Source: a virus (taxonomy: Duplodnaviria > Caudoviricetes). Taken from it: a DNA stretch of 64,000 nucleotides. The translations under genes were made by a program, and so were the position numbers. A model generated the notes under the pieces. It was given only the letters and a program-made list of their open reading frames with translations, ran no database searches and was not told the DNA's origin. The stretch spans positions 1-64,000 of IMG/VR virus record IMGVR_UViG_3300033485_000007; one strand, written 5' to 3'. Below, in pieces: positions 4,117 to 61,535 of this stretch; within the stretch, counting starts at the first letter, position 1, and every line of letters starts with the position of its first letter.

Positions 4117-4517
4117 CAACCGATCGCGAGTATTCCCCATCGGACGCCGCGGATGCTGTTCTCGGGTGGAAAGGCCGGTTCCGCGGCAAGAGACTGATCA
4201 GGAAGGTGCTCGCCAAAGAGAAGCGAACAGGTCGGCAGATATTCAAGCGCTCGGTCGCTCCGAACGGAAGAACGGCTTACCTGATTACGCGGGCAGTAAT
4301 AGCAAATGAATTCCCAGATTTGTTGAAGCCGACGGTCGAAAGCCTAATGAACGATATACGGCTAAGGATGGATGAGCTAGAAAACAGCATCTCGAAAACC
4401 GTCGCAACTGAGGTAAATAAACACATGTCATCGTGCGTACGGCAGAATTCACTGCTCAGGGTCGAGCTCAAGCGGCTATCAGACGACATGGACGAAAGGA
4501 TACGAAAACTGAGGTAA
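4113..4517 (+). CDS. hypothetical protein, basic N-half (possible DNA binding) and coiled-coil C-half
   Basis: ATGA overlap with upstream stop; composition. Confidence 0.6.
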   Translation: MTTDREYSPSDAADAVLGWKGRFRGKRLIRKVLAKEKRTGRQIFKRSVAPNGRTAYLITRAVIANEFPDLLKPTVESLMNDIRLRMDELENSISKTVATEVNKHMSSCVRQNSLLRVELKRLSDDMDERIRKLR

Positions 4518-4810
4518 AGTTACAGTGTGACTATACCGAAATCGATGATGTGGGGACAAATGTCCCATGTTAGACCCGAGAATCCGCTCTAAGAATGAGG
4601 GCCCTTGGAGGGGGAGTAAGAGGGGGTGGCCGTCTGGGTTAGTCTCGCTCCTCATCTCTATCACGTCGTCGCTCTTCAGTGAGTCATCGAATCATGCCAT
4701 TCATTGGTTTCGATAACACGACAGTTTCCCACCCAGTCCATCGCGTTGGCCTGTACAGCAGGTTGGGCGTCGAGCAAACAAGCTAGCTACCGAGCCGCCT
4801 ACGGGTCATC

Positions 4811-5332
4811 GGTGGCGCTCGATACAGCGTCAGTTCCCAGTAGCACGACCGGTCACAGTCCGGTATGGGCGGCTCAAGTAGCCGAACGATGCCAGTCGCG
4901 CTCGGGTTTTACCGCCGCGGCTACTTTTACCCGCCGTACTCGAAAGTGGCCCACGTTGGCCGACCTGGATTCGTTCAGGTAGTTGGGCGGATTTTTGCTG
5001 TCACCGTGTCAGACTTACGAGTCCCCGTAAGCGCCGAGTAACGTCGGTCCTGATTGGGTTCAGGGAGCACGGTGCCGCTCTATCACACCCGTCGCGCCTC
5101 TCAACGATGCGAAATTCGATGGGTTTTTGGATTGGTGGCTGAGTGGCCTAAAGCTCTCGGTTGCTAACCGAGCTCTCGGGAAACCGCGACGGACGTTCGA
5201 ATCGTCCCCAATCCGCGACATGTCAGCGCGACCGAATCGGTCCGGTAAGGCCGTCAACGTCAGGGGCTGACTCAAGCATCGCGAAACGGTTACCGCCAAG
5301 TAGCGATGTGGACTCGACTGGGTAGCGCCACC
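4811..5332 (+). ncRNA. candidate large structured RNA enclosing tRNA-Ser (minimum boundaries)
   Basis: No credible ORF in 4518-5348. Three nested long-range helices: 4811-4819/5324-5332 (9 bp), 4892-4898/5315-5321 (7 bp), 4951-4956/5306-5311 (6 bp, one G-U). Many local hairpins, including a UUCG loop near 4969. Confidence 0.7.
5129..5215 (+). tRNA. tRNA-Ser(GCU), class II, 3'-CCA not encoded
   Basis: Acceptor GGATTGG/CCAATCC, D arm GCT..AGC, anticodon stem CTCGG-TT GCT AA-CCGAG, long variable arm with GAAA loop, T arm GGACG-TTCGAAT-CGTCC, discriminator G followed by CGA. Confidence 0.95.
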
Positions 5333-5348
5333 TAAAGCGCAACAACAC

Positions 5349-5531
5349 ATGAAACGCCCACCAGCAGGGATAGAGATAACGGTCAACCGTGAGATATCGC
5401 AGCCGATTATCGAAGACGCTACCGTTGGCGTGGGCAGCATCGTGACGCTAGCGGGATTCGGGCTCGACGACGATGCCGAGTTCGAGGTCGTGTGGATAGG
5501 CGTCGACAGGATACGCGTCAGGGCTAGGTAG
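5349..5531 (+). CDS. hypothetical protein
   Basis: 60-aa ORF in operon orientation. Confidence 0.5.
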   Translation: MKRPPAGIEITVNREISQPIIEDATVGVGSIVTLAGFGLDDDAEFEVVWIGVDRIRVRAR

Positions 5532-5537
5532 CGACGC

Positions 5538-5566
5538 TTGACACTGTTCGTGCAGCGTGCTATTAG
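5538..5566 (+). promoter_or_regulatory. sigma70-type promoter, leaderless
   Basis: TTGACA-N17-TATTAG, 6 nt before ATG 5573. Confidence 0.55.
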
Positions 5567-5572
5567 CCGCGT

Positions 5573-5809
5573 ATGGACAGAGTTCGCATCACAGAAGCGG
5601 CGAAAAAGGTCATTGACGCAATCAGAACCAGGGACACGGACTACACGAGCCCGTCTGCTACCGACGCTGGCAAATCACCATGGCGACTGTTCCTTAACGG
5701 TCACGAGGTCGGCACGGTTGACGCTCACGTTGGCCCGAACATCGTGTCGTATCGTACTGGCGGCGTAGAGGTTACACTGATTCGGGCTAGTATCGTTAAG
5801 GCGGACTAA
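5573..5809 (+). CDS. hypothetical protein
   Basis: 78 aa; TAATG coupling to next ORF. Confidence 0.55.
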   Translation: MDRVRITEAAKKVIDAIRTRDTDYTSPSATDAGKSPWRLFLNGHEVGTVDAHVGPNIVSYRTGGVEVTLIRASIVKAD

Positions 5810-6555: not shown

Positions 6556-7825
6556 CGACGACGAAGCTCGACAGGTTCAGTACCTGTGGGAGCTTTGGCG
6601 GCGTCCCGGGCAAGCTCCGCCTGCGAATAACTGGTCGACCTGGCTTATCCTGGCTGGGCGCGGGTTCGGTAAGACTCGAGTTGGCGCCGAGTGGGTCAGA
6701 TACTTAGCCGAGAACAAGTTGGCTGACCGCATCGCGATCGTTGCCCGAACCGCTTCCGATCATGTCAAGACGACAATTGAGGGCGAGTCGGGTATTTTAG
6801 CGGTTTCTCCGCCATGGTTCAAGCCGCGATACATCCCCAGCAAGTGCCAGTTGATATGGCCAAACGGCGTAATCGCTCACACGTACACAGCGGATGAGCC
6901 GGATAACCTTCGCGGTCCACAGCATAGCGCAGCATGGTGCGACGAGCTGGCCGCGTGGAGATACCCAGACGCATGGGACCAACTTCAGTTCGGTTTGCGC
7001 CTTGGCAGTAATCCCCGCGCGGTCGTAACAACCACGCCTCGACCAACGAAGCTAATCAAGGAGCTTCTCGCGTCGCCAACCACCGCGGTAACGCGCGGCT
7101 CGACGTACGACAACAAGGCCAACTTAGCCCCGACCTTCCTCGAGAAGATTGTCGCCAAGTACGAGGGGACGCGACTCGGGCAACAGGAGCTATACGGGAC
7201 GGTTCTCGACGACAATCCAGGGGCCCTATGGAAGCGCAATGCAATTGAGACGGCGAGGGTCCGGGAGCACCCTAGACTGGTCCGTATCGTTATCGCGATA
7301 GACCCGGCTGTTTCGACGAACGACAAGTCAGACGACACCGGGCTGGGCGTTGCCGGGCTCGGGAACGACGGAGAGGTCTACGTGCTAGAGGACGCTACCA
7401 TGCGCATGGCTAGCCCCAACGAATGGGGTAGGCGCGCTGTAGAGTTGTTTGACAAGTACCAAGCTGACCGTATCGTGGCCGAGCGCAATCAAGGCGGCGA
7501 CCTTGTTGAGTCGAACATCAGGGCCCAGCGTGCTCACCTACCGATTACCACAGTCCATGCGACACGAGGTAAAGCGCTAAGGGCTGAGCCAGTGTCCTCC
7601 CTATACGAACAGGGAAAGGTACACCACGTTGGGTGCCTACCTGAGCTCGAGGACGAAATGTGCGACTGGAACCCGACCGTTCCAAATCAGAAATCTCCGA
7701 ACAGGATAGACTGGTTGGTTTACGCGGTTACTGAGTTACTTCCAAGGCTCAACTTGCCACCGGAAGAGGAACTCGATCTTGATGTCTCAAGGATGCTAAA
7801 GCATCACAATTCGGCCTTAGCATGA
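6470..7825 (+). CDS. terL: terminase large subunit (Terminase_6 type)
   Basis: LAGRGFGKT, LRGPQ...W.DE.A.W, TTTP, nuclease IAIDPA..DDTG; start uncertain. Confidence 0.95.
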   Translation: MTYSSQNSLRSRLERLPKDRLRRILTQLSDDEARQVQYLWELWRRPGQAPPANNWSTWLILAGRGFGKTRVGAEWVRYLAENKLADRIAIVARTASDHVKTTIEGESGILAVSPPWFKPRYIPSKCQLIWPNGVIAHTYTADEPDNLRGPQHSAAWCDELAAWRYPDAWDQLQFGLRLGSNPRAVVTTTPRPTKLIKELLASPTTAVTRGSTYDNKANLAPTFLEKIVAKYEGTRLGQQELYGTVLDDNPGALWKRNAIETARVREHPRLVRIVIAIDPAVSTNDKSDDTGLGVAGLGNDGEVYVLEDATMRMASPNEWGRRAVELFDKYQADRIVAERNQGGDLVESNIRAQRAHLPITTVHATRGKALRAEPVSSLYEQGKVHHVGCLPELEDEMCDWNPTVPNQKSPNRIDWLVYAVTELLPRLNLPPEEELDLDVSRMLKHHNSALA

Positions 7826-43991: not shown

Positions 43992-45326
43992 CTATCGTCC
44001 ATTAGCCAGAATAGACAACAAGACATATCGATCGTTCAGAGATTGGTCATCAGTAACAAGCTCGAGTAATTCTCGAAGCTTTATGCCAACAGCTGGTCCA
44101 GGTCCTATCTCAAGTGTGGACATGACATCCAGACCGGTGACAGCCAACTGAGTTGTTGTCGTCACAATTGGTGTATAGGCGCCCATTGATGCGATTCGTT
44201 CTGTTAGCCAGTCTAGGTAACCATTTGGCAGCCCAGGCGCACGCGATACGCCCTTCCCGACACAATCCGCCCTGGCTAACGAGATGATGTCCGAAACATT
44301 GTCGAGTCCGACCTTTCGAGCCCATCTACGAATTGAGGCAGGTGACTTGAGCTCGGGCACCAGATGGTAGCGCACCAAATGCACAATACGTTCTCGGTCT
44401 TCATTCGAGAATTTGAGTCTTCGTAGTATCGCGTCCGCTACATCGGCCCCGGTCTTTTCGTGATCATAAAATGTTGGCTCTCCTGTGACCGGATGCGTTC
44501 CCTTCGTATCGGGCTTAGCGACATCGTGAAGCATTGCCGCGAGTCGCAAGTGCTGCTCTTTAGGAGTTGCATCCGTTACGCGCATGGTATGATCCCAAAC
44601 ATCAAACTCGTGATACTTGTTCTGTTCACATCCGATCATTGGCAGCATCTCTGGCAATACTTGCGCGAGCATGTCCGATCCCAGAAGGATGCCAAGGAAA
44701 CGAGACGGGAGTGGGGAAAGCAATCCCTTAACAAGTTCCACCCGTACGCGTTCAGCGGCAACGCTTAATCGGCAACGCTCAATTGCCTCAAAAGTTTTTG
44801 AGCCGATACTAAACCCGAGTACCGCTGCAAATCTGACAGCTCGTAAGGCCCGCAATGTATCTTCGTTCAGCCTGGAATCTGCGTCGCCGACCGCATGTAC
44901 AACTTTGCGCGCAATGTCATCGACTCCGCCAAACGGATCAACAACCTCACCGCTCAAAGGGTCGTGGGCAATTGCATTGATTGTGAAGTCGCGACGACTT
45001 AGGTCAATCTTGATGCTATCTGAAAACTGTACGCTATCCGGTCGGCGTCCGTCGGAATAGTGGCCATCAACGCGGTAGGTTGTCACCTCGAAGCTTTCTC
45101 CGTCAAGGATGACCGTAACCGTGCCGTGATCTATCCCAGTATCAACGACTCTGGCGAACAGGTTAGCTACCTGCACTGGTAGAGCGTTCGTCGCTATATC
45201 CCAATCGTTCGGGGCGCGTCCGATAATAGAATCACGGATAGCGCCACCGACTAGGTACGCTTCGAATCCAGCGTTGTTTAGCACGCGGCAGATTGATATC
45301 GCGTTTTCTGTCGGGTGGATGTTCAC
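43992..45326 (-). CDS. cca: class II tRNA nucleotidyltransferase (CCA-adding type) with HD domain
   Basis: YLVGGAIRD..D.D, flexible loop Y.DGRRP, RRDFTINA, EDxxR (EDTLR), H....LHD; no poly(A)-polymerase signature seen. Confidence 0.9.
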   Translation of the reverse strand: MNIHPTENAISICRVLNNAGFEAYLVGGAIRDSIIGRAPNDWDIATNALPVQVANLFARVVDTGIDHGTVTVILDGESFEVTTYRVDGHYSDGRRPDSVQFSDSIKIDLSRRDFTINAIAHDPLSGEVVDPFGGVDDIARKVVHAVGDADSRLNEDTLRALRAVRFAAVLGFSIGSKTFEAIERCRLSVAAERVRVELVKGLLSPLPSRFLGILLGSDMLAQVLPEMLPMIGCEQNKYHEFDVWDHTMRVTDATPKEQHLRLAAMLHDVAKPDTKGTHPVTGEPTFYDHEKTGADVADAILRRLKFSNEDRERIVHLVRYHLVPELKSPASIRRWARKVGLDNVSDIISLARADCVGKGVSRAPGLPNGYLDWLTERIASMGAYTPIVTTTTQLAVTGLDVMSTLEIGPGPAVGIKLRELLELVTDDQSLNDRYVLLSILANGR

Positions 45327-46417
45327 GATATGGCCTCCGACATGATCTCAACGCAATCTCTGTCGATTGCTTCGATGTCTGGTGACTTTGGCAGGGCGCT
45401 TGTCTTCGCTGCTTCCTCGAGTTTCGAATCTTCCGCAGATGCCCAGTCACGAAGCTGTTCATACGTCCAAGCTCCGCCGCGTATTGCCAGTAGCTCATCA
45501 GCGTCTGGACGCTTAACGATTACCTTACCGGTCTCGAGAATCTCACGACACATACGGATTAGACGCACCAAATGCATCGCGTGCTTCGTGTCGTACCCGT
45601 GTTTTGCCTCTAGCTCGGCACGAGCAGGATTGCGGGTTGCTTTCCACGTTTGGTAATTGTTCCATTCGCGAAGTTTACCCGAGTAGCGCCTCTCCATATC
45701 GAGTAGATAAATGAAGTTATCGGAAAAACCAAGCGTTCGTGCTGCGCCTTGCCAGAGCTCGGAGTTGCTTGAAATCTCTAGTTCTGCTAGATGTGAGGAC
45801 ATTTTCTGAAGGATAGACTCACGAATGTCCCTCGGTAGGTCGTCGAGGAAGTTGGCGCTCCATGAATCCATCTTCTGGCGGATTGCTGACTCTGCCGCGG
45901 CAAGCTGATCGTGTGGGACGAGTGATCGCTCTGGTAATCCAAATTCAGTTCTGGACGGTTGTGCCAACGGTGGTGTTTTTATCCACCTGTAATGTGTGTC
46001 GATTCTCTTCAATTGAGAAGCCGCATAACCCGAAAACGTGTGCTTCACTCGACGAGTCAAGAACATTTGTCGCATAGCCAATAGCCGTTCGCCGTATTTG
46101 GAAACTTGTAGCCTATCCGATTCGTCAACAAACAGAATCTCGATAACGTTTGGGTTGCACTGTGACGCCAGGCTGACGAACTTCTTTAGGCAGAACACAG
46201 TCAAATCGGGCGCGTTGCATACCACCTGATCGAACCGATGCAGGCCACCTAGGTAGTATTCCCGAGGTGCAATCGCTACCCCGCGAACGTCATGGTCACT
46301 AGAAGGCAGAGCGGTGCCGTACGCGTGGCTTCCGTGGGTGCACAGGAAAATTGTTCGTTCTGGAATCCACTTCAGATTTCCAGAGTATTGTGACCAGTCA
46401 AATGTGTTTTGTTGCAT
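45323..46417 (-). CDS. rlaP: RlaP-like Pol-beta superfamily nucleotidyltransferase
   Basis: HGSHAYGT..SSD.DVRGV, NPN.IE.LF, GYDTKHAMHLVRL, L.AIR.G. Confidence 0.88.
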   Translation of the reverse strand: MQQNTFDWSQYSGNLKWIPERTIFLCTHGSHAYGTALPSSDHDVRGVAIAPREYYLGGLHRFDQVVCNAPDLTVFCLKKFVSLASQCNPNVIEILFVDESDRLQVSKYGERLLAMRQMFLTRRVKHTFSGYAASQLKRIDTHYRWIKTPPLAQPSRTEFGLPERSLVPHDQLAAAESAIRQKMDSWSANFLDDLPRDIRESILQKMSSHLAELEISSNSELWQGAARTLGFSDNFIYLLDMERRYSGKLREWNNYQTWKATRNPARAELEAKHGYDTKHAMHLVRLIRMCREILETGKVIVKRPDADELLAIRGGAWTYEQLRDWASAEDSKLEEAAKTSALPKSPDIEAIDRDCVEIMSEAIS

Positions 46418-46431
46418 TGTGTCTCAACTTA

Positions 46432-46800
46432 TCAAATACACGAAAACGGAATCCATCTGACCGTAAACCCTTTGCGCTCCAAAAACGCGCGCATACGGCA
46501 GGCCCCAACTGGGTTAACAGAATGAATATCAATCGTTTCTGGAAGCTTGGCGACGCGCTTCGGTTTCGCGAGCATCAACCCGCACGCATCGAGACCCGTG
46601 GCCTCTAGTCCCTGGTACAGTGACCGGCAATCGAAATCGTTCAGGTCATGGTCGAGTGACACGCCCTCGAACCGAGCGTACTTGTCGTTATCGAGCGCGT
46701 CTGTGAACTGGTCAATCGTATACACGTGCACCAGCTCACCAGGGTAGAGCGATTCGTAGTGGTCGTGTCGGAATTTGTTGTCGTCTAGGAAAAGTCTCAT
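46432..46800 (-). CDS. cyclic-phosphate-processing receiver (cREC) domain protein
   Basis: LFLDD, SLDHDL, TG.D, I.IHS.NP.G...M; ATGA-coupled start. Confidence 0.85.
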   Translation of the reverse strand: MRLFLDDNKFRHDHYESLYPGELVHVYTIDQFTDALDNDKYARFEGVSLDHDLNDFDCRSLYQGLEATGLDACGLMLAKPKRVAKLPETIDIHSVNPVGACRMRAFLERKGFTVRWIPFSCI

Positions 46801-48774
46801 TCGAACCAATGGCCTCCATCACCGTCAACGCCAATCTCAGTCACCGCGCCAAGGTGAATACAGTTTCCGGATTCAAGAGTCAATAGACTATAAGTGCCAT
46901 CAATGCGATGGAACCTCATCCAAGTCGAGCCGTCGGATAATGGCTCGAGAAGCCGAATCACGGTATTGCGCGGAACATCAAACAGTGGAATTCGTTTCAT
47001 GGCTCGAATCCTGGCTGTAGCTTGTAAGGCAGCGAGACGACCTTCCAGTATCGGTCGTAGATCGGACCTGCGAGTTCGTTTAGCGGTCGCGCTATCTGTT
47101 CAAGTTTCTCCCGGTTAATTGCTACCGGTATTGGCAGAAACTTCTCAGCTGGATAGTCGCGGCAAAAGTTGTCAGTTTCTACTATTGCGAAATTTGTCAT
47201 GTCTCACCCTCAATAGCACACCCGTACGCCTTCATAACCTCGACGTACCGCTTGGTGATGAGCGCCCTAGCCTGCTGTGGCGTCATAATTACCGTCCGCT
47301 CGGACGCGACCGAGAGGTAGCCATCCGACGTGAGCATATTATATCGCTCTGGCTCTTCGCTCGAGTACTCGACCTTCCCGCACGTCGCGCACCTGACGTG
47401 ACCTGGATAGTGATGAGAACTGTACGGGTCGTCGTCAGTGGACGATTTCTCGTGGTAAATGAATATATGCGGGCAGCATGACCGAACCTTGGCGGTAGCG
47501 GCACTTTTCCTGGCCGCGGATTCCTTTGACTGTGCAATCGTCATATCGTCAGTAACGACAATCGCATTCGCCGTCTCAAGCTCCAGCAACGCGTCACGGA
47601 GCTTTTCTGGTGGCCAGGAGACGATGATTGACAACTCCCGTAACGTCTCCAGCTCGCGCGCCTTACGATGCCACGCTTCGGTTGTTTCCCGTACAGCCTT
47701 ATTGACCGCGACGAGGTCGCGTTCCTTGTTTTTGAGTTCGACTGATAATCCGCTGATATCAGCCGTGCAATTGTCCAATGCCTGTTCGATTGTCGTCATT
47801 TTAAATACACTAACTAATCCGCAATTGACTCGATTGATAGGTCGATCGTCTCTATCGATGACCCGCAGTCCAGTTCGGTGAATTCTGGATATTTCGCGCG
47901 AATGAACGCGGATAGGTTGCAGTCGCACGAATAGTTGCCCTCGGAGAACATGTACACGGCACTCTCGTGAGGGTACGCGTAACCGAAATCATACTCAATT
48001 TCATACACCTTACTGTCGTATTGAAGGTTTAGTCTGGCGACTGTACGCAGTCGAGTGTCGGTCCCCTCATACAGAGCGTAGGCCAGCTCGCGGGCTGACA
48101 GCTCGACCTCTAGCGCCCGGAGCCTAAACAGGTATGCAACCCGATCCTCTGCGGTATCAAACCAGTAATACCCACCGCTGAGCCCGTGTTTCGCCGCGTG
48201 TTCTGGATTGAAGAACCCGCCCCACGTGTGAATCACGTATTCGTATTTTTCAGACATAACAAGTCCTATCGGTAATTTGTCGCACTCGCCTCTCGCCTCA
48301 AGCCACCCCTAACCCGTGTGGCTTTTTCGAGTTTGTTAGATCGATTTACTGACGCTCAACCCGTGTTTCTCGGCAACTTCGGACAGTACGGATTCAGCCT
48401 GCTCACTGGTCAATTCCAGCGCCTCGATCACGGCCAACATACTGCGCACTGCGCCTTTGTGTTGTATTGCTCGTGTCTTCGGGCTTGATTTTGCAACATC
48501 AGCAAGCGTTTCCTTTGATTCCATAATAGTCCTCTCTAACGACTCATGGCATAGTCGGCTAAAATAACACGTGCATCCTCAACGGATTCGTGCGCAATCA
48601 CGTCGCCCGTTGATGCGCGCCATCGGTATTCTGGGTGTAGCGCTGCCATCGTAGACGCCACTCGACAGGCAGTGTCCATGTCGCTCAAACAGAATGTTGG
48701 CAGTTCGGCGTCTACGGACCATTGTCCCGACGCTCCACTCGACATGATGTAAATTTTGGAATTGTCCATGTGCG

Positions 48775-54087: not shown

Positions 54088-55094
54088 TACCACTTATCCC
54101 CCGGCATCATCCGCACATTCAGCCGCGCTGGCCATCCACCGCATTCGGTCGTGTCCTTCGAAACGCGCGTCTTGCCATTGCCGCTATCGACTTCGATTTG
54201 TTTCACGAAAACCGGCACGTTCGCCGATTTGCACTGGTCGATAATCGAGTCGAACCAGGCGACATCCGACGGTCGGCGACCGGGGCCTGACTCCGTTCCG
54301 ACAACGATCCAATCGAGCCCCCATTCCCATGTTCCTCCGGTCGAAGGAACCTTAGGATCAGGATGCTGCAACCGCTCGCCGTTATTCGCAACAAGCGTTG
54401 GCTTGAGATACTTGCGGATATCGAGCCCCGAAAGCAACGGCTCAGCACTGATCCACCGTACGGCAGCCGGGCAGCGGAGTAGGTACGGAATTCGCTCGTC
54501 TGCGGCCGCCTGGTTTTCGACGGAGACGCCGACGTGGACGTTTGGTAGGGGCCACTTGAGACCGTCGACCATGTTTCGAAGTTTCCAGAACTTCGCATCA
54601 TGGTCCTCGTCGCTGCCGTCGGCGAGTTCCGCGGAAGACAGCGAGCAAAGCGTGTCGCCGATGAAGTCTCCGTGTTCGGCTGTCTCCGACCGAATCCACT
54701 CGTAAAACTCCACCATGCGCTCGGCGCGCTTGGTCAAGATCTGGAAAGTATGCTGCGGACACGATGCGATTACACCGTAGACTGCGGCGATTTGTTCGAA
54801 TGAAAGCGACTCGTGGAATAAATCCGACATCGAATTTACGAAGACGAGCGACGGTTTTTTCCAGTGCAACGGGGCCGCGAGCATCTCCGGAATGAAGCGG
54901 ACCTCACCGGACCATTTACCGTCGCGAATCAATCCGTGATACGGCTGACCTTCGCCACAGAACCGCGCCGCCATGCGTTCGGCAAAGCAATTTTTACAGC
55001 CGCTCGAAACCTTCGAGCATCCGCGGATCGCGTTCCACGTGTAGCCAGGCGTCCCAGCTTCGGATCTCGTCCATTCAATCGATGTTTTAGCCAT
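54087..55094 (-). CDS. DUF5131 (Gp37/Gp68) protein
   Basis: TSIEWT, TWN...GC.KVS.GC.NCFAE, FVNSMSDLFH, HTFQILTKR, GVSVENQ, W.SAEPLL. Confidence 0.92.
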   Translation of the reverse strand: MAKTSIEWTRSEAGTPGYTWNAIRGCSKVSSGCKNCFAERMAARFCGEGQPYHGLIRDGKWSGEVRFIPEMLAAPLHWKKPSLVFVNSMSDLFHESLSFEQIAAVYGVIASCPQHTFQILTKRAERMVEFYEWIRSETAEHGDFIGDTLCSLSSAELADGSDEDHDAKFWKLRNMVDGLKWPLPNVHVGVSVENQAAADERIPYLLRCPAAVRWISAEPLLSGLDIRKYLKPTLVANNGERLQHPDPKVPSTGGTWEWGLDWIVVGTESGPGRRPSDVAWFDSIIDQCKSANVPVFVKQIEVDSGNGKTRVSKDTTECGGWPARLNVRMMPGDKW

Positions 55095-57069
55095 TTGCTG
55101 TCACCTCCGTGTTGCGCTTCTTGATTTCATCAGCCCGATACAGTGACCACATGAGACACGATATGAAGTCGGTAATTTCGTCGGTCATTGCCGATCCGGC
55201 GGGCGCCATGTGATAAAAGTCGACAAGTAAAACGCGCTCGCCATCTGACGAAACACCAACGGTTGACGTCCATTTGCCAGGAGGCTTCTCGCGTGCCGAT
55301 GCGGTCGCTTGGTGGCGGCCTAGTTTTCCATTCACTCGGCCCGAATCGTCGAGCGTGAATACCACCGACGGCGTTGCCCCATCCGGGTTTGCGCACGTCC
55401 AGGTTCCGACAACTTTCGGGAACGAAAACATGTTGTATTTCATGAAGCTCATATTAGTAAACCACTGGTTTGTGTGCTGAGCAGAATCCGGAACCGTCAC
55501 TAGGCAACCCTCCATACGCGGCAAGTTCGCATTGAGTGGACGATCCCTCGTCAGGGTCACCTGGGAACCACGAGCACGTCTTGCACCGCTTGACCACCGC
55601 CACCTCGACGAACCCGTCACGCGGCACACCAGAAATCTTGGCGGTCTCGAGATGGCCGGCAACGTCCATGCGTAGCGAGTTTCGGTGGAGTCTGTCTAGC
55701 GCGGATTGTTGGATGTAGATGGTCATTTTGACAGCTCCTCAAGCAACCTCTGTGATTGTAGCCTGATGCTTGGGCTAATTTCAAAGTCGTCGGCCGTGGA
55801 AATGCGCTCAACGAACGCGCGAAGCTTCTGCTCCGCTTCAGTCCGCTTGCCAAGCAATGCCGACAATTCCGTGACCGCTTGCGACAGGCTGGCACTCAAC
55901 GCCTCCGCCGCAATCCGTCGCGCGGTTTCGGATTGGAGATGATCGAGCGGAGCGAAACGTTTGTGCTCCACTGTAGCAAGCAGACTGTCAAAATTAAGCA
56001 CCTGAGACGGGACCACGCGTGTCTTTTCTGTCTTTACTGACCCGGAAAACTGTAGGCAATTTACAGATTCGAAACTCACCCAAACATCCCGCGACTCGTC
56101 ACGCTTCTCGCTCGCAACCGGCAAGAGCTCATAGTCGCACGTGTGGTCACATCCAAGTCCTTTCCACCGTTCACGCTCGAAATCATCATCGGGCTCGTCG
56201 CGCCTGTCACATTCAGTGGCGCGCTTGAGCGGGACGAGGGCCCCGTACTCAATCCGATCGGTACTTTCCGCCCAGGTGTCATCAAGCGCCAGGTCAATCC
56301 ATTCCTGAGCCGACGACTCCGCCTCCGTCAGCGTATCGTGCTCCTCGAATTCGCCGTCGATTCCTAGGCTGTAGTATCTATTGGTCATCGTCTTCCTCTT
56401 CGTTTCTTCCGTACCCGTAGTCGCGCTCTTCCTCGCGCTCACGTTCCATTTCCGCGTCAATACAACCTGGTGCGCACCTCTCAGGAGCCACCGCGTGGCA
56501 TCCGGGACAGACACGAGCAAGCATGTCGGTGTCGCGCTTCTCGAGTAGCGCGCGCATTAATTCGTAATCGGACTCGCGGAGTTCAACGGTCGCACCGGCT
56601 ATCTCGACCTGTCCAATTGTCGGGTTTTCGGCGGTATAGGTCACGCCGCCACCAGCAGCCTTTGCGACCTTGTTCGCCTCATTGGCCATCAGTCGATACC
56701 AAAGACGCGTGCCCATGGTATCGGCCTGCTTCGCGAATTCGTTGTAACCAACGACAAGGGCCGTTAGAGCTATCGCGTTGTGTTGCTCTTCGCTCATGAC
56801 TTTTCCTTAACCACCGCATACGGATTCCGCTGCGGTTTGCCTTCTTTTATCGCCGCTTGCCCAGCGACGTAGCCTTCGGACCAGATGTCGGCGAGCTTCG
56901 CCTTCAACTCGAGATACGCCGCGGCGGGCACGAATTCTTCGAGGCCATCATCGGGATCCGTATCGACCTCGACGTGCAGGTAGGAGCCCATTTCGCGCAC
57001 CTCTTCAAGGTCGTCGCTGTCAACGAAGATGGACTCCGGATGCGCTTTCATAGCAGGGTCAGTCGACAT
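55087..57069 (-). other. five hypothetical ORFs (55087-~55455, 55454-55726, 55723-56388, 56378-56797, 56794-57069)
   Basis: Coupled, co-oriented ORFs; starts approximate. Confidence 0.55.
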
Positions 57070-60023: not shown

Positions 60024-60179
60024 CTACAATCTCCTTAAATCGTCACTTCCGCAACTAGGACACGTCACCTGATAGCACTCACAGCGCGCCGTGTCGAGTT
60101 CAGCAAACTCGGCAAAGCACGTCTGACATTCGAGCGTTAGATCATCCTCTGGCGGGTCGTAGTCGCCAGCGCCACGCAT
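60024..60179 (-). CDS. FmdB-like zinc-ribbon protein (51 aa)
   Basis: LECQTCFAEF...TCPSCGSDDLRRL; below the ORF-track length cutoff. Confidence 0.65.
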   Translation of the reverse strand: MRGAGDYDPPEDDLTLECQTCFAEFAELDTARCECYQVTCPSCGSDDLRRL

Positions 60180-60180
60180 T

Positions 60181-60381
60181 CTATCGGTGCGCACTGCCGA
60201 CCGCCTCCTGAGCGTCTAGGGCGAGCTTCCCGATGGCTTGGGCGCGCGGTATGTCGCCGCTATCGAGAGCCAGCAGAGCCGCCGTGGCGAGTCCGCGAGC
60301 AATGCACTCGGCCTGGAAAAGATCTGTGTGAATCAGGGCAAGCATTTGTTCGTATGCTATTTGGGCTTGGGATGGAGTCAT
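60181..60381 (-). CDS. hypothetical protein
   Basis: SD GAGGA. Confidence 0.55.
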   Translation of the reverse strand: MTPSQAQIAYEQMLALIHTDLFQAECIARGLATAALLALDSGDIPRAQAIGKLALDAQEAVGSAHR

Positions 60382-60885
60382 AATCCTCTACTCAGGAATC
60401 GTCTTTTGTTTGTGCCCAGTCACGGAGTCTAACCGTGTCAGTACGTCTGGGCTGGACCGGGCTTATCGCGCCCTTGCGTTACCGCTCTGACGCCAATCGT
60501 GGCCCCGGTACACGGCGGATGCGCCTCACGATTGGTTGTCTTAGTGTTACTGGCATAGCATTTGGTCCGTTTGGTTTTGGTCTGCTACCGGCGGGCGCAA
60601 CCCGCGCGCAATACCCAGCGTTACTCGATGCTGGTCATAAATCCTCTAGTGGTTCTTCCGGGCCATACCGCAGTCATCTCAGTCATCGCAATCCGTTGCC
60701 GATTGGACACCCGCCGGCACAATTGCCACGTGGTTGGCTTCGATTAATTTGGTTGGTATGTCAATGTTGGCGCAACCCTAAGGCATGGTTCCTCGCTTTC
60801 GTCTGGCAGCCTGTCACATTACAGGGCCCGGGAGAATGAACAATCAGCGTGGCCGATTACTCACTCTATCGGGCTCTGTATGGGC
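60382..60885 (-). ncRNA. candidate ~500-nt structured RNA / long leader
   Basis: No credible ORF on the operon strand. Helices 60493-60501/60527-60535 (9 bp), 60588-60595/60710-60717 (8 bp), 60653-60664/60825-60836 (11 of 12 bp), 60414-60419/60447-60452; GNRA loops; own promoter. Confidence 0.55.
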
Positions 60886-60889
60886 AATT

Positions 60890-60917
60890 ACTATAGCGCA
60901 ATCATGGCGGACGTCAA
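60890..60917 (-). promoter_or_regulatory. sigma70-type promoter
   Basis: TTGACG-N16-TATAGT. Confidence 0.65.
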
Positions 60918-61535
60918 CCTAAACTTGCTACGTCAACCTCTGATCCAATATCGAAGTCAGCCGATTCTTGTGTGACATCTCCGTCTGAGTCGCAAATAAT
61001 ATTCGTCATTACCTCGATCGTACAATCGTACGTAGCGAAAATTCTGCAACCAGGGTATCTACCAATAAGCTCGGCTAGGTCACGTTTGAATTCGAGTTCG
61101 ACCTGTTCCCTGGTTTTCATTTTGCCTCCGTAATCACACACTCGTCGATTCCCTCGCGAATTGAGAAGATATCGTACCCGAGTCGGGTCATCCTCAGAAA
61201 TACCTGAGCCGGCGTCAACAGCGTCTCCACTGGTCGCGTTGGCCGAACTCGTCGATAGGTGGACACGTCGCCAAGCATCCTATCGAACGACACCACGCGA
61301 TTCACGCGAGCACCACGCAAGCCTGAGCGAACACGTCCCGCGCGCTTGCACCAGACACGACAACGCGCTCGGTAGTGTCGTCGGTCTCTCGGTCGTACTC
61401 GGTTACGCGGATGTGTTTGCGACCGTTCTCGCCGGCCGAGAACGTGATCGTTTGACCTGGCCGTAGCGAGTCCAGGATCGCGAAGATTTGTTCGGCTTGC
61501 TGCGCCTTGAGTTCCGATAGTTGCTTGGTCAACAT
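60914..61535 (-). other. three small hypothetical ORFs (60914-61120, 61117-61320, 61302-61535)
   Basis: Coupled; preceded by a degenerate element-B promoter TTGCGC-N17-CACGCT (61560-61588). Confidence 0.55.

Follow-up and report, generated by a model that had tools for sequence, protein, structure and literature searches.

We propose, with about an even chance of being right, that the non-coding stretch in front of the recombination operon of this phage is a leader derived from a tRNA array, and that an anticodon-less mini-tRNA within it has been kept as a processing signal of the RNase P/RNase Z type. Our best reading of the sequence comparisons is that selection has maintained a long 5' hairpin (HP1), three blocks shared with one related phage (B1, B2 and B3) and the minihelix itself, which consists of an acceptor stem stacked on a T arm and would have outlasted all decoding tRNAs of the leader. 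The initial annotation had taken the stretch for a novel large structured RNA or ribozyme, or for a regulatory leader of the exonuclease/SSB genes; neither the tRNA genes that hold this position in related phages nor the conserved tRNA-derived minihelix at the ribosome-binding site had been noticed.

An IMG/VR virus record of 76.6 kb, rated ~55% complete, provided the window analysed here, which is its first 64 kb. Cultured phages offer only distant relatives of the capsid protein (partial matches of at most ~32% identity). According to Pfam, the phage encodes a set of RNA-repair proteins, and the leader fills a 536-base gap in the following gene order:

61141-60914, minus strand: 75-aa ORF upstream of the 536-base gap
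60388-60384 and 60381-60379, minus strand: SD (GAGGA) and start codon of the first operon ORF (66 aa)
60381-60181, minus strand: 66-aa ORF, first of the operon, directly after the gap
Minus strand, after the 66-aa ORF and before the exonuclease: Zn-ribbon ORF
60022-59084, minus strand: DUF3799/PD-(D/E)XK exonuclease (PHROG "exonuclease VIII", 4e-47)
Minus strand, after the exonuclease in the recombination operon: 216-aa ORF
43992-46809 and 743-1858: CCA-adding-type nucleotidyltransferase (43992-45326) with HD domain, RlaP, cREC and RtcB (Pfam)

The leader occupies an empty tRNA slot

Since no phage or viral contig matched the leader DNA (blastn in the case of INPHARED phages), relatives were gathered through the exonuclease, members of its clusters and the contigs encoding them, in a survey of 80 distant loci and 11 contig look-ups. 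Every close relative with upstream sequence carried tRNA genes on the operon strand just 5' of the operon, in what we refer to as the slot:

L214, L216 and L219 (exonuclease identity 78%): tRNA-Thr
L213 (74%): tRNA-His and tRNA-Met
L002 (59%): tRNA-Arg(CCU)
L212 (55%): tRNA-Trp and tRNA-Ile(UAU)
L097 (53%): tRNA-Tyr

Among the distant exonuclease loci that were scanned (at most 35% identity, n = 34), 33 of 34 were devoid of tRNAs; the exception is a lone tRNA-Ile of L146, which lies ~5.4 kb upstream of the exonuclease and on the opposite strand. ARAGORN found no tRNA in the slot of the window, be it at default settings or relaxed down to 90%. With tRNAs in the slot of its relatives and none in that of the window, gene order places the leader in a tRNA slot of variable content that this phage leaves empty.

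Elsewhere in the window, tRNA-Ser(GCU) (5129-5216) is located in a long ORF-poor stretch (4518-5348) that is dissimilar to the leader, and a search of the ORF-free stretch near this tRNA (4400-5700) and of the rest of the genome yielded no similarity to the leader. Another 407 bases without an ORF of at least 40 codons (simple gene map) lie at 47929-48335. A 50-kb Logan contig encoding the exonuclease P0005 shows two long gaps ahead of its operon. Just after their last slot tRNA, L212 (480-510) and L097 (192-222) share a different 31-base block (27/31 identical, ...TTGCTGACACATGGG...), and conserved leader blocks following tRNAs may be a general trait of this phage group. Inside the recombination operon of L213, ARAGORN made a tRNA-like call with a 2-base anticodon (7139-7224) overlapping a 104-aa ORF; this call could be spurious or mark a further tRNA relic.

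A tRNA-like minihelix precedes the ribosome-binding site

The 3' end of the leader carries an element composed of the following parts:

60413-60452, minus strand: tRNA-like minihelix of 40 nt, 6-bp acceptor plus T arm, ending 24 nt before the SD
60452-60447, minus strand: acceptor 5' strand GCCCAG, then 9 nt before the T arm
60437-60421, minus strand: T arm CACGG-UUAGACU-CCGUG, followed by a spacer A
60419-60414, minus strand: acceptor 3' strand CUGGGC, then the discriminator A (60413) and CAA

CCA, anticodon arm and D arm are all missing. The corresponding element of L002 consists of the acceptor 5' strand GCCACC, 46 nt, the T arm CCUGG-UGCGACU-CCAGG with no spacer behind it, the acceptor 3' strand GGUGGC and a GCCA tail. 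Its 6 and 5 bp stack contiguously, and those of the window are interrupted by an A-A mismatch (6 bp, mismatch, 5 bp). The acceptor starts at the same base relative to B3 in both phages.

Between the window and L002, five pairs were changed on both sides (three in the acceptor, two in the T stem) and none was broken, in a comparison of two sequences (three alignable) that is too small for covariation statistics. Acceptor pairs 4-6 read CG/AU/GC in the window, AU/CG/CG in L002 and GC/UG/GC in tRNA-Met of L213, all of them standard pairs; T-stem pairs 2-3 are AU/CG in the window versus CG/UA in L002. Both T loops (UUAGACU in the window, UGCGACU in L002) follow the pattern U..GACU, with U1 and A5 kept. 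The T arm and acceptor 3' strand of the window agree with the 3' part of the L213 tRNA-Met at 21 of 25 positions (p<0.005, shuffle test), and this tRNA has the same A7/A66 mismatch and discriminator A as the minihelix. Besides, the T arm by itself resembles that of tRNA-Thr in L214 (p=0.005, shuffle test).

Searched against 3.96 Mb of DNA from phages and bacteria, a strict structural descriptor of the element recovered all true tRNAs and matched only ~10 places other than tRNAs; given this rarity, two matches at the same base after B3 are not due to chance. In the window, the minimum free energy (MFE) structure of the 3' domain includes the minihelix. For L002, the MFE of the whole 342-nt stretch contains it too; in the 3' segment, it costs 1.7 kcal/mol more than the MFE and makes up ~30% of the ensemble. 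The Rfam tRNA model did not match at E<=10 within 60395-60520 or within L002 4100-4225, and ARAGORN at default called neither minihelix; odd models appeared only at thresholds of 70-80%, with the L002 element being read at 80% as a tRNA that lacks the D arm and whose anticodon loop has 8 nt. A tRNA or tRNA-like element abuts the SD in the window, L002 and L213 alike, and from their sequences the three look like a positional series that runs from a working tRNA-Met (L213) over a degenerate cloverleaf (L002) to a bare minihelix (window).

Conserved blocks shared with L002

Comparison of the minus strand of the window with the 356 nt following tRNA-Arg in L002 revealed three colinear blocks, in two phages whose neighbouring proteins are only ~59% identical. 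From 5' to 3', the leader contains:

60826-60874, minus strand: HP1, long 5' hairpin with base GCCCG/CGGGC and an inner stem of 15 bp, four of which are G-U/U-G, so that only the minus strand forms it well; part of the 5'-domain MFE
60778-60825, minus strand: degenerate T-arm-like hairpin CCUGU-AAUGUG-ACAGG, then a relic junction of tRNA-like end, SD and AUG
60747-60773, minus strand: block B1, 22/27 identical to the sequence directly after the L002 tRNA-Arg
60562-60605, minus strand: block B2, 34/45 identical to L002 4061-4105
60476-60535, minus strand: window-only insertion with a 9-bp hairpin (60535-60493) and a GCG-GUAA-CGC tetraloop hairpin (60485-60476)
60450-60470, minus strand: block B3, CGCGAUAAGCCCGGUCCAGCC, 21/21 identical to L002 4114-4134 (28/31 with flanks; E = 5e-8)

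At the nucleotide level, only B3 matches between the two loci in sequence that is clearly intergenic, and it is far better conserved than its surroundings; the other matches across the 10.9-kb L002 locus lie inside two genes (68-74% identity), apart from one 22-mer. B3 forms the 5' leader of the tRNA-like element, and its GGUCC (60458-60454) could pair with GGACC (60568-60564). B2 is made up of the hairpin GCGGGU-UGC-GCCCGC (60605-60591), predicted in both MFE structures (window and L002), and the tail ACGGACCAA (60570-60562). As for HP1, L002 possesses a hairpin with an identical GCCCG...CGGGC base and another interior just before its tRNA-Arg. Between B2 and B3, the window has ~82 extra bases relative to L002, which lacks this insertion and with it the 9-bp hairpin; both insertion hairpins appear in the MFE of the 3' domain.

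Upstream of B1, positions 60807-60784 match L002 4206-4229, i.e. the end of the tRNA-like element, the SD and the start codon of that phage (83% over 24 nt, E = 0.04). The window carries a good SD (GAGGAA) and a 2-codon ORF, AUG CCU UAG, at 60778-60793. Its likeness to the real gene start in L002 suggests that this junction inside the leader is left over from a gene start that was displaced.

The blocks B1-B3 were found in two sequences only, the window and L002, and the 80 distant loci and 11 contigs of the exonuclease-guided survey held no third copy. They are absent from L213, which is closer to the window than L002 by its exonuclease; the blocks are therefore patchy and could be exchanged rather than selected. 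Searches of viral contigs with a 14-mer and a 20-mer of B3 and with patterns for B1 and B2 returned nothing real, and an 18-mer of B3 gave chance matches only, 32 in metagenome contigs and 33 in genome contigs, the latter inside unrelated bacterial sequence. B3 is not palindromic and is not repeated elsewhere in the phage genome. The 22-mer is a perfect match (window 55698-55719, L002 9720-9741) and possibly coding; located between the minus-strand ORFs 55087-55662 and 55723-56520 of the window and inside a called gene in L002, it may point to a wrongly set gene start or to another conserved block of non-coding DNA.

Promoter, strand and reading frames

The following signals and open frames were identified in and around the leader:

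60917-60890, minus strand: sigma-70-type promoter TTGACG-16-TATAGT, 10/12 consensus matches, overlapping the stop codon of the 75-aa ORF
60722-60621, transcribed (minus) strand: 33-codon TTG ORF
60556-60479, transcribed (minus) strand: 25-codon ATG ORF
60435-60839, opposite (plus) strand: 134-codon GTG ORF

The promoter is thus present as first described, and we found no terminator-like site between it and the operon ORFs. Promoters of the form TTGAC(G/T)-16-TA..(G/A)T stand at the equivalent place in L213 and L212, where they precede the tRNAs; the motif was not found ahead of the slot tRNAs in L214 and L216, and the slot of L002 has only a weaker one. The position from promoter to first ORF, the lack of a predicted terminator and the conserved nucleotide blocks lend partial support to the earlier idea of a regulatory leader for the exonuclease/SSB genes.

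Doubts about the strand could be settled in favour of minus by the promoter, the T-loop motif, the ACCAA bias and the 15-bp wobble hairpin, since the four wobble pairs in the inner stem of HP1 fix the strand. ACCAAA and CCAAC repeats had been noted previously; ACCAA shows a strong over-representation confined to the transcribed strand (6 copies vs 0.7 in shuffles; none on the other strand), and this bias is seen in L002 too (4 vs 0.6). Both sequences contain loops of the GNRA type as well as strand-specific ACCAA and GGUAAC motifs. Of note, CGGUA(A) is found five times within the 356 nt of L002 3871-4226, against 0.15 expected, and GGUAAC/GUAAC motifs recur in the window leader too, often in predicted loops.

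The initial statement that no ORF exceeds ~21 codons was too strict, as the sense ORFs of 33 and 25 codons exist, but its essence holds, for no ORF is credible or conserved: this applies to both sense frames and to the antisense frame of 134 codons. The product of the latter had no relatives at E<=0.01 among 5.8 billion proteins and no PHROG match, and no gene was called there.

Long-range helices and folding stability

The three helices first described, two of which had been proposed to form a pseudoknot or switch, exist in the window as written, but none is conserved in L002, the sole alignable relative, which leaves no conserved pseudoknot. The 9-bp stem (60535-60527/60501-60493) belongs to a segment absent from L002; for the 8-bp helix (8-9 bp, 60718-60710/60595-60588), the L002 partner is not complementary; and the 11-of-12-bp helix (60836-60825/60664-60653) has no counterpart there. 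The latter two also compete with features common to both phages, the 8-bp helix taking the 3' half of the B2 hairpin and the 11-of-12-bp helix the 3' base of HP1.

When folding was compared with dinucleotide shuffles on both strands, the minus strand of the window was marginally more stable (z = -2.43, with 1 of 100 shuffles as good), the plus strand and the 3' half alone each reached z = -1.43, and the two strands of the homologous L002 stretch were no better than shuffles (z = +0.93 and +0.73). Further hairpins were assigned tentatively:

60615-60734, minus strand: middle part with hairpins M1 (60734-60709), M2 (60705-60689) and M4 (60634-60615)

L002 look-alikes of all three were recognised by hand comparison, those of M2 and M4 in hairpin matching as well. 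M4 has a 5-bp stem, four pairs of which are changed on both sides, and a 10-nt loop with UCG.GUAAC. The assignments are tentative because MAFFT does not reproduce the structure-guided alignment, either in the middle part or in the minihelix region. In a permutation test of position-matched hairpins, 5 were observed against the usual 2-3 (p about 0.03-0.06), a marginal result given that with just two sequences (n=2) unrelated hairpins also "covary". With its helices unconserved, the stability of the relative equal to that of shuffles and the middle part not unambiguously alignable, the notion of a novel large structured RNA or ribozyme found no support.

Comparison with known RNA families

Covariance-model searches with Rfam, as suggested at the outset, produced no meaningful match for the whole window at gathering score, for 60100-61200 at E<=10 or for two small sub-regions. 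GOLLD, ROOL and other large Rfam RNAs were set aside, for no covariance model matched even at E<=10 and L002 yielded its tRNA-Arg only. The same holds for a tRNA proper (RF00005), with neither a covariance nor a default ARAGORN match, and for a tmRNA, one-piece or permuted: ARAGORN called none at default and spurious permuted ones only at 70%, and acceptor strands only 27 nt apart further disfavour it. On the plus strand of B3, GGCUUAUCG resembles the P4/CR-V region of RNase P RNA, a likeness dismissed because neither strand matched the covariance model and the order of elements was wrong. A Y RNA (YrlA) acting with Ro was provisionally rejected for want of a TROVE match in the 76.6 kb of this ~55% complete record and of an Rfam match, and an attP or integration core for want of PF00589 or PF00239 matches in the same 76.6 kb. 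Finally, the leader is not a "mosaic of tRNA fragments", as only the minihelix is significantly tRNA-like.

Alternative explanations

We weighed, in this order, functionless decay, a large structured RNA, a DNA-level or mobile-cassette element and a hidden gene. The leader could be a decaying tRNA array that serves no function itself, its tRNAs having been deleted and only spacer and pseudo-tRNA debris being left, co-transcribed with the operon by chance. This we consider unlikely, if the least so of the alternatives. Slot tRNAs differ among relatives and are evidently exchangeable, the minihelix is plainly a tRNA from which the D and anticodon arms have been deleted, a relic SD, AUG and stop junction persists at 60807-60778, the L002 stretch is no more stable than shuffles and the middle part cannot be aligned reliably. 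Yet a block identical at 21 of 21 positions beside genes that are 68-74% identical in DNA is not what neutral decay leaves behind, nor are five stem pairs changed on both sides with none broken, or an acceptor register relative to B3 that the two phages share exactly. For the core, B3 and the compensatory pairs hence argue against decay, while for much of the 500 nt it may hold. Quite unlikely, in our view, is an independent, ornately folded non-coding RNA or ribozyme of ~450-500 nt, with long-range helices and functional throughout. It would suit a long, ORF-free and promoter-driven stretch whose transcribed strand folds with z = -2.4, the GNRA-type loops and strand-specific motifs in both sequences, and the look-alike hairpins M1, M2 and M4 that differ on both stem sides; GOLLD and ROOL RNAs, too, occur near phage tRNAs (PMC5737381). 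However, neither of these nor any other Rfam family matches, both long-range helices are absent from L002, whose folding is no better than that of shuffles, the window has its ~82-nt insertion, the two sequences are far apart in length and arrangement, the hairpin permutation test is weak and no terminator parts the stretch from the ORFs.

Still less probable is an element acting as DNA, such as a protein-binding or recombination site; the blocks would then be an origin, an operator, or what a small mobile cassette inserted at the 3' end of a tRNA has as its scar or att-like core. The shared segment of L002 is flanked by a direct repeat, UGGCGCCAAC, and lies between the 3' end of tRNA-Arg and a tRNA-like 3' end, both reading ...GGCGCCAAC; B1 in the window opens with GCGCCAAC, and the segment is patchy among relatives, being present in the window and L002 and absent from L213. 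Against this stand the lack of an integrase or resolvase in 76.6 kb (of a record 55% complete), a B3 that is neither palindromic nor repeated in the genome, and compensatory stem changes and a strand-specific motif bias that point to RNA. We regard a missed protein gene, either the 134-codon opposite-strand ORF (60435-60839) or a short sense ORF, as barely plausible. An open frame of 134 codons is unusual in non-coding DNA, and in each of the two phages an antisense start codon, from which GWTGLIA would be read, is found 15-18 nt ahead of B3; but there is no homologue or PHROG match, the two phages do not agree in the frames of B2 and B3, the identity of B3 at 21/21 bases leaves no synonymous variation and the L002 frame stops after 51 codons.

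Proposed mechanism

In our preferred reading, that of a tRNA-derived processing signal, the sigma-70-type promoter would start a transcript through the leader into the ORFs, and the minihelix, as its sequence and covariation suggest, would fold as the top half of a tRNA. Host RNase P would cut between A60453 and G60452, and a 3' tRNA-processing nuclease after A60413. These cuts would free an mRNA with a short, defined 5' end and release the upstream leader RNA of ~320-430 nt, with B3 terminating the released RNA at its 3' side and thereby forming a conserved 5' flank for the cut. Acceptor/T-arm minihelices are the minimal substrates of RNase P, 3' tRNA nucleases and CCA-adding enzymes, and by virtue of this shape a cutting signal that parts leader RNA from mRNA is the most likely job of the element. 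Against this reading counts the absence, from the window element, of a 3' RCCA, which aids substrate binding by bacterial RNase P. The missing CCA fits a phage with a CCA-adding enzyme of its own, which could complete the minihelix.

The released RNA might also be the actual product. Under this unlikely variant, the B1-B3 segment (~260-320 nt), bordered by a tRNA or its relic on the left and the mini-tRNA on the right, would belong to a rare family of phage non-coding RNAs that are excised by host tRNA-processing enzymes and have a job of their own, which would consist, e.g., in binding host or phage proteins via the ACCAA and GGUAAC repeats.

Relation to known systems

The closest parallels to the proposed processing signal are provided by the t-elements of plant mitochondria, degenerate tRNA-like folds that are cut to make mRNA ends in line with the tRNA punctuation model (PMC1920247). 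As in t-elements, a degenerate tRNA-like fold retains an acceptor-like stem and a T arm and sits at an mRNA border where other transcripts or relatives have real tRNAs (PMC1920247). In the window, the acceptor-like stem is stacked on a T arm whose loop holds U1 and A5, and the border is the place of tRNA-Met in L213 and of the tRNA-like element in L002. Cutting by RNase P and RNase Z to make mRNA ends would, by analogy, be shared as well; for the window element it is proposed. Unlike t-elements, the minihelix resides in a bacteriophage operon instead of an organelle and, at 40 nt, is without any anticodon or D arm; its T loop also departs from GGTTCRANYCC and reads GGUUAGACUCC.

In MALAT1 and MEN-beta, the 3' end of a long non-coding RNA is generated by an RNase P cut at an adjoining tRNA-like structure (mascRNA). 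The leader likewise places non-coding RNA directly ahead of a tRNA-like structure, and an RNase P-made 3' end would be a further likeness. On the other hand, MALAT1 is eukaryotic and nuclear, an mRNA follows the tRNA-like element in the window, and no triple-helix protection of the end is evident there.

GOLLD and ROOL are long non-coding RNAs of phages and prophages that are often encoded beside tRNA genes and possibly co-transcribed with them; our leader is similar in being a long non-coding phage stretch linked to a tRNA slot (PMC5737381). It differs in that neither covariance model matches the window at E<=10 and in that the leader, known from two members only, lacks conserved multistem junctions or pseudoknots. 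With phage tRNA genes (RF00005), the minihelix shares its descent and its slot (21/25 to the L213 tRNA-Met), whereas its lack of a D arm, an anticodon arm and CCA, by which it escapes the tRNA model and ARAGORN, means that it cannot decode. By analogy, our best reading is that the leader element would work like the t-element or mascRNA arrangement, rather than as a member of the tRNA, tmRNA, GOLLD, ROOL or Y-RNA families.

To our knowledge, minihelices of this type have not been formally described in phage operon leaders. The natural 40-nt minihelix, a CCA-adding enzyme and RNA-repair genes are united here in one phage, which makes it a test object. Should the B1-B3 segment be excised, it would constitute a bacterial-virus counterpart of MALAT1/mascRNA, in a phage endowed with RtcB, RlaP, cREC and a CCA-adding enzyme. 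Cutting of the minihelix, if real, would mean that phages keep the top half of a tRNA as pure punctuation after its decoding role has been lost, and would extend the organellar idea of "tRNA punctuation" to bacterial viruses. If true, this would account for the persistence of tRNA-like relics beside ribosome-binding sites.
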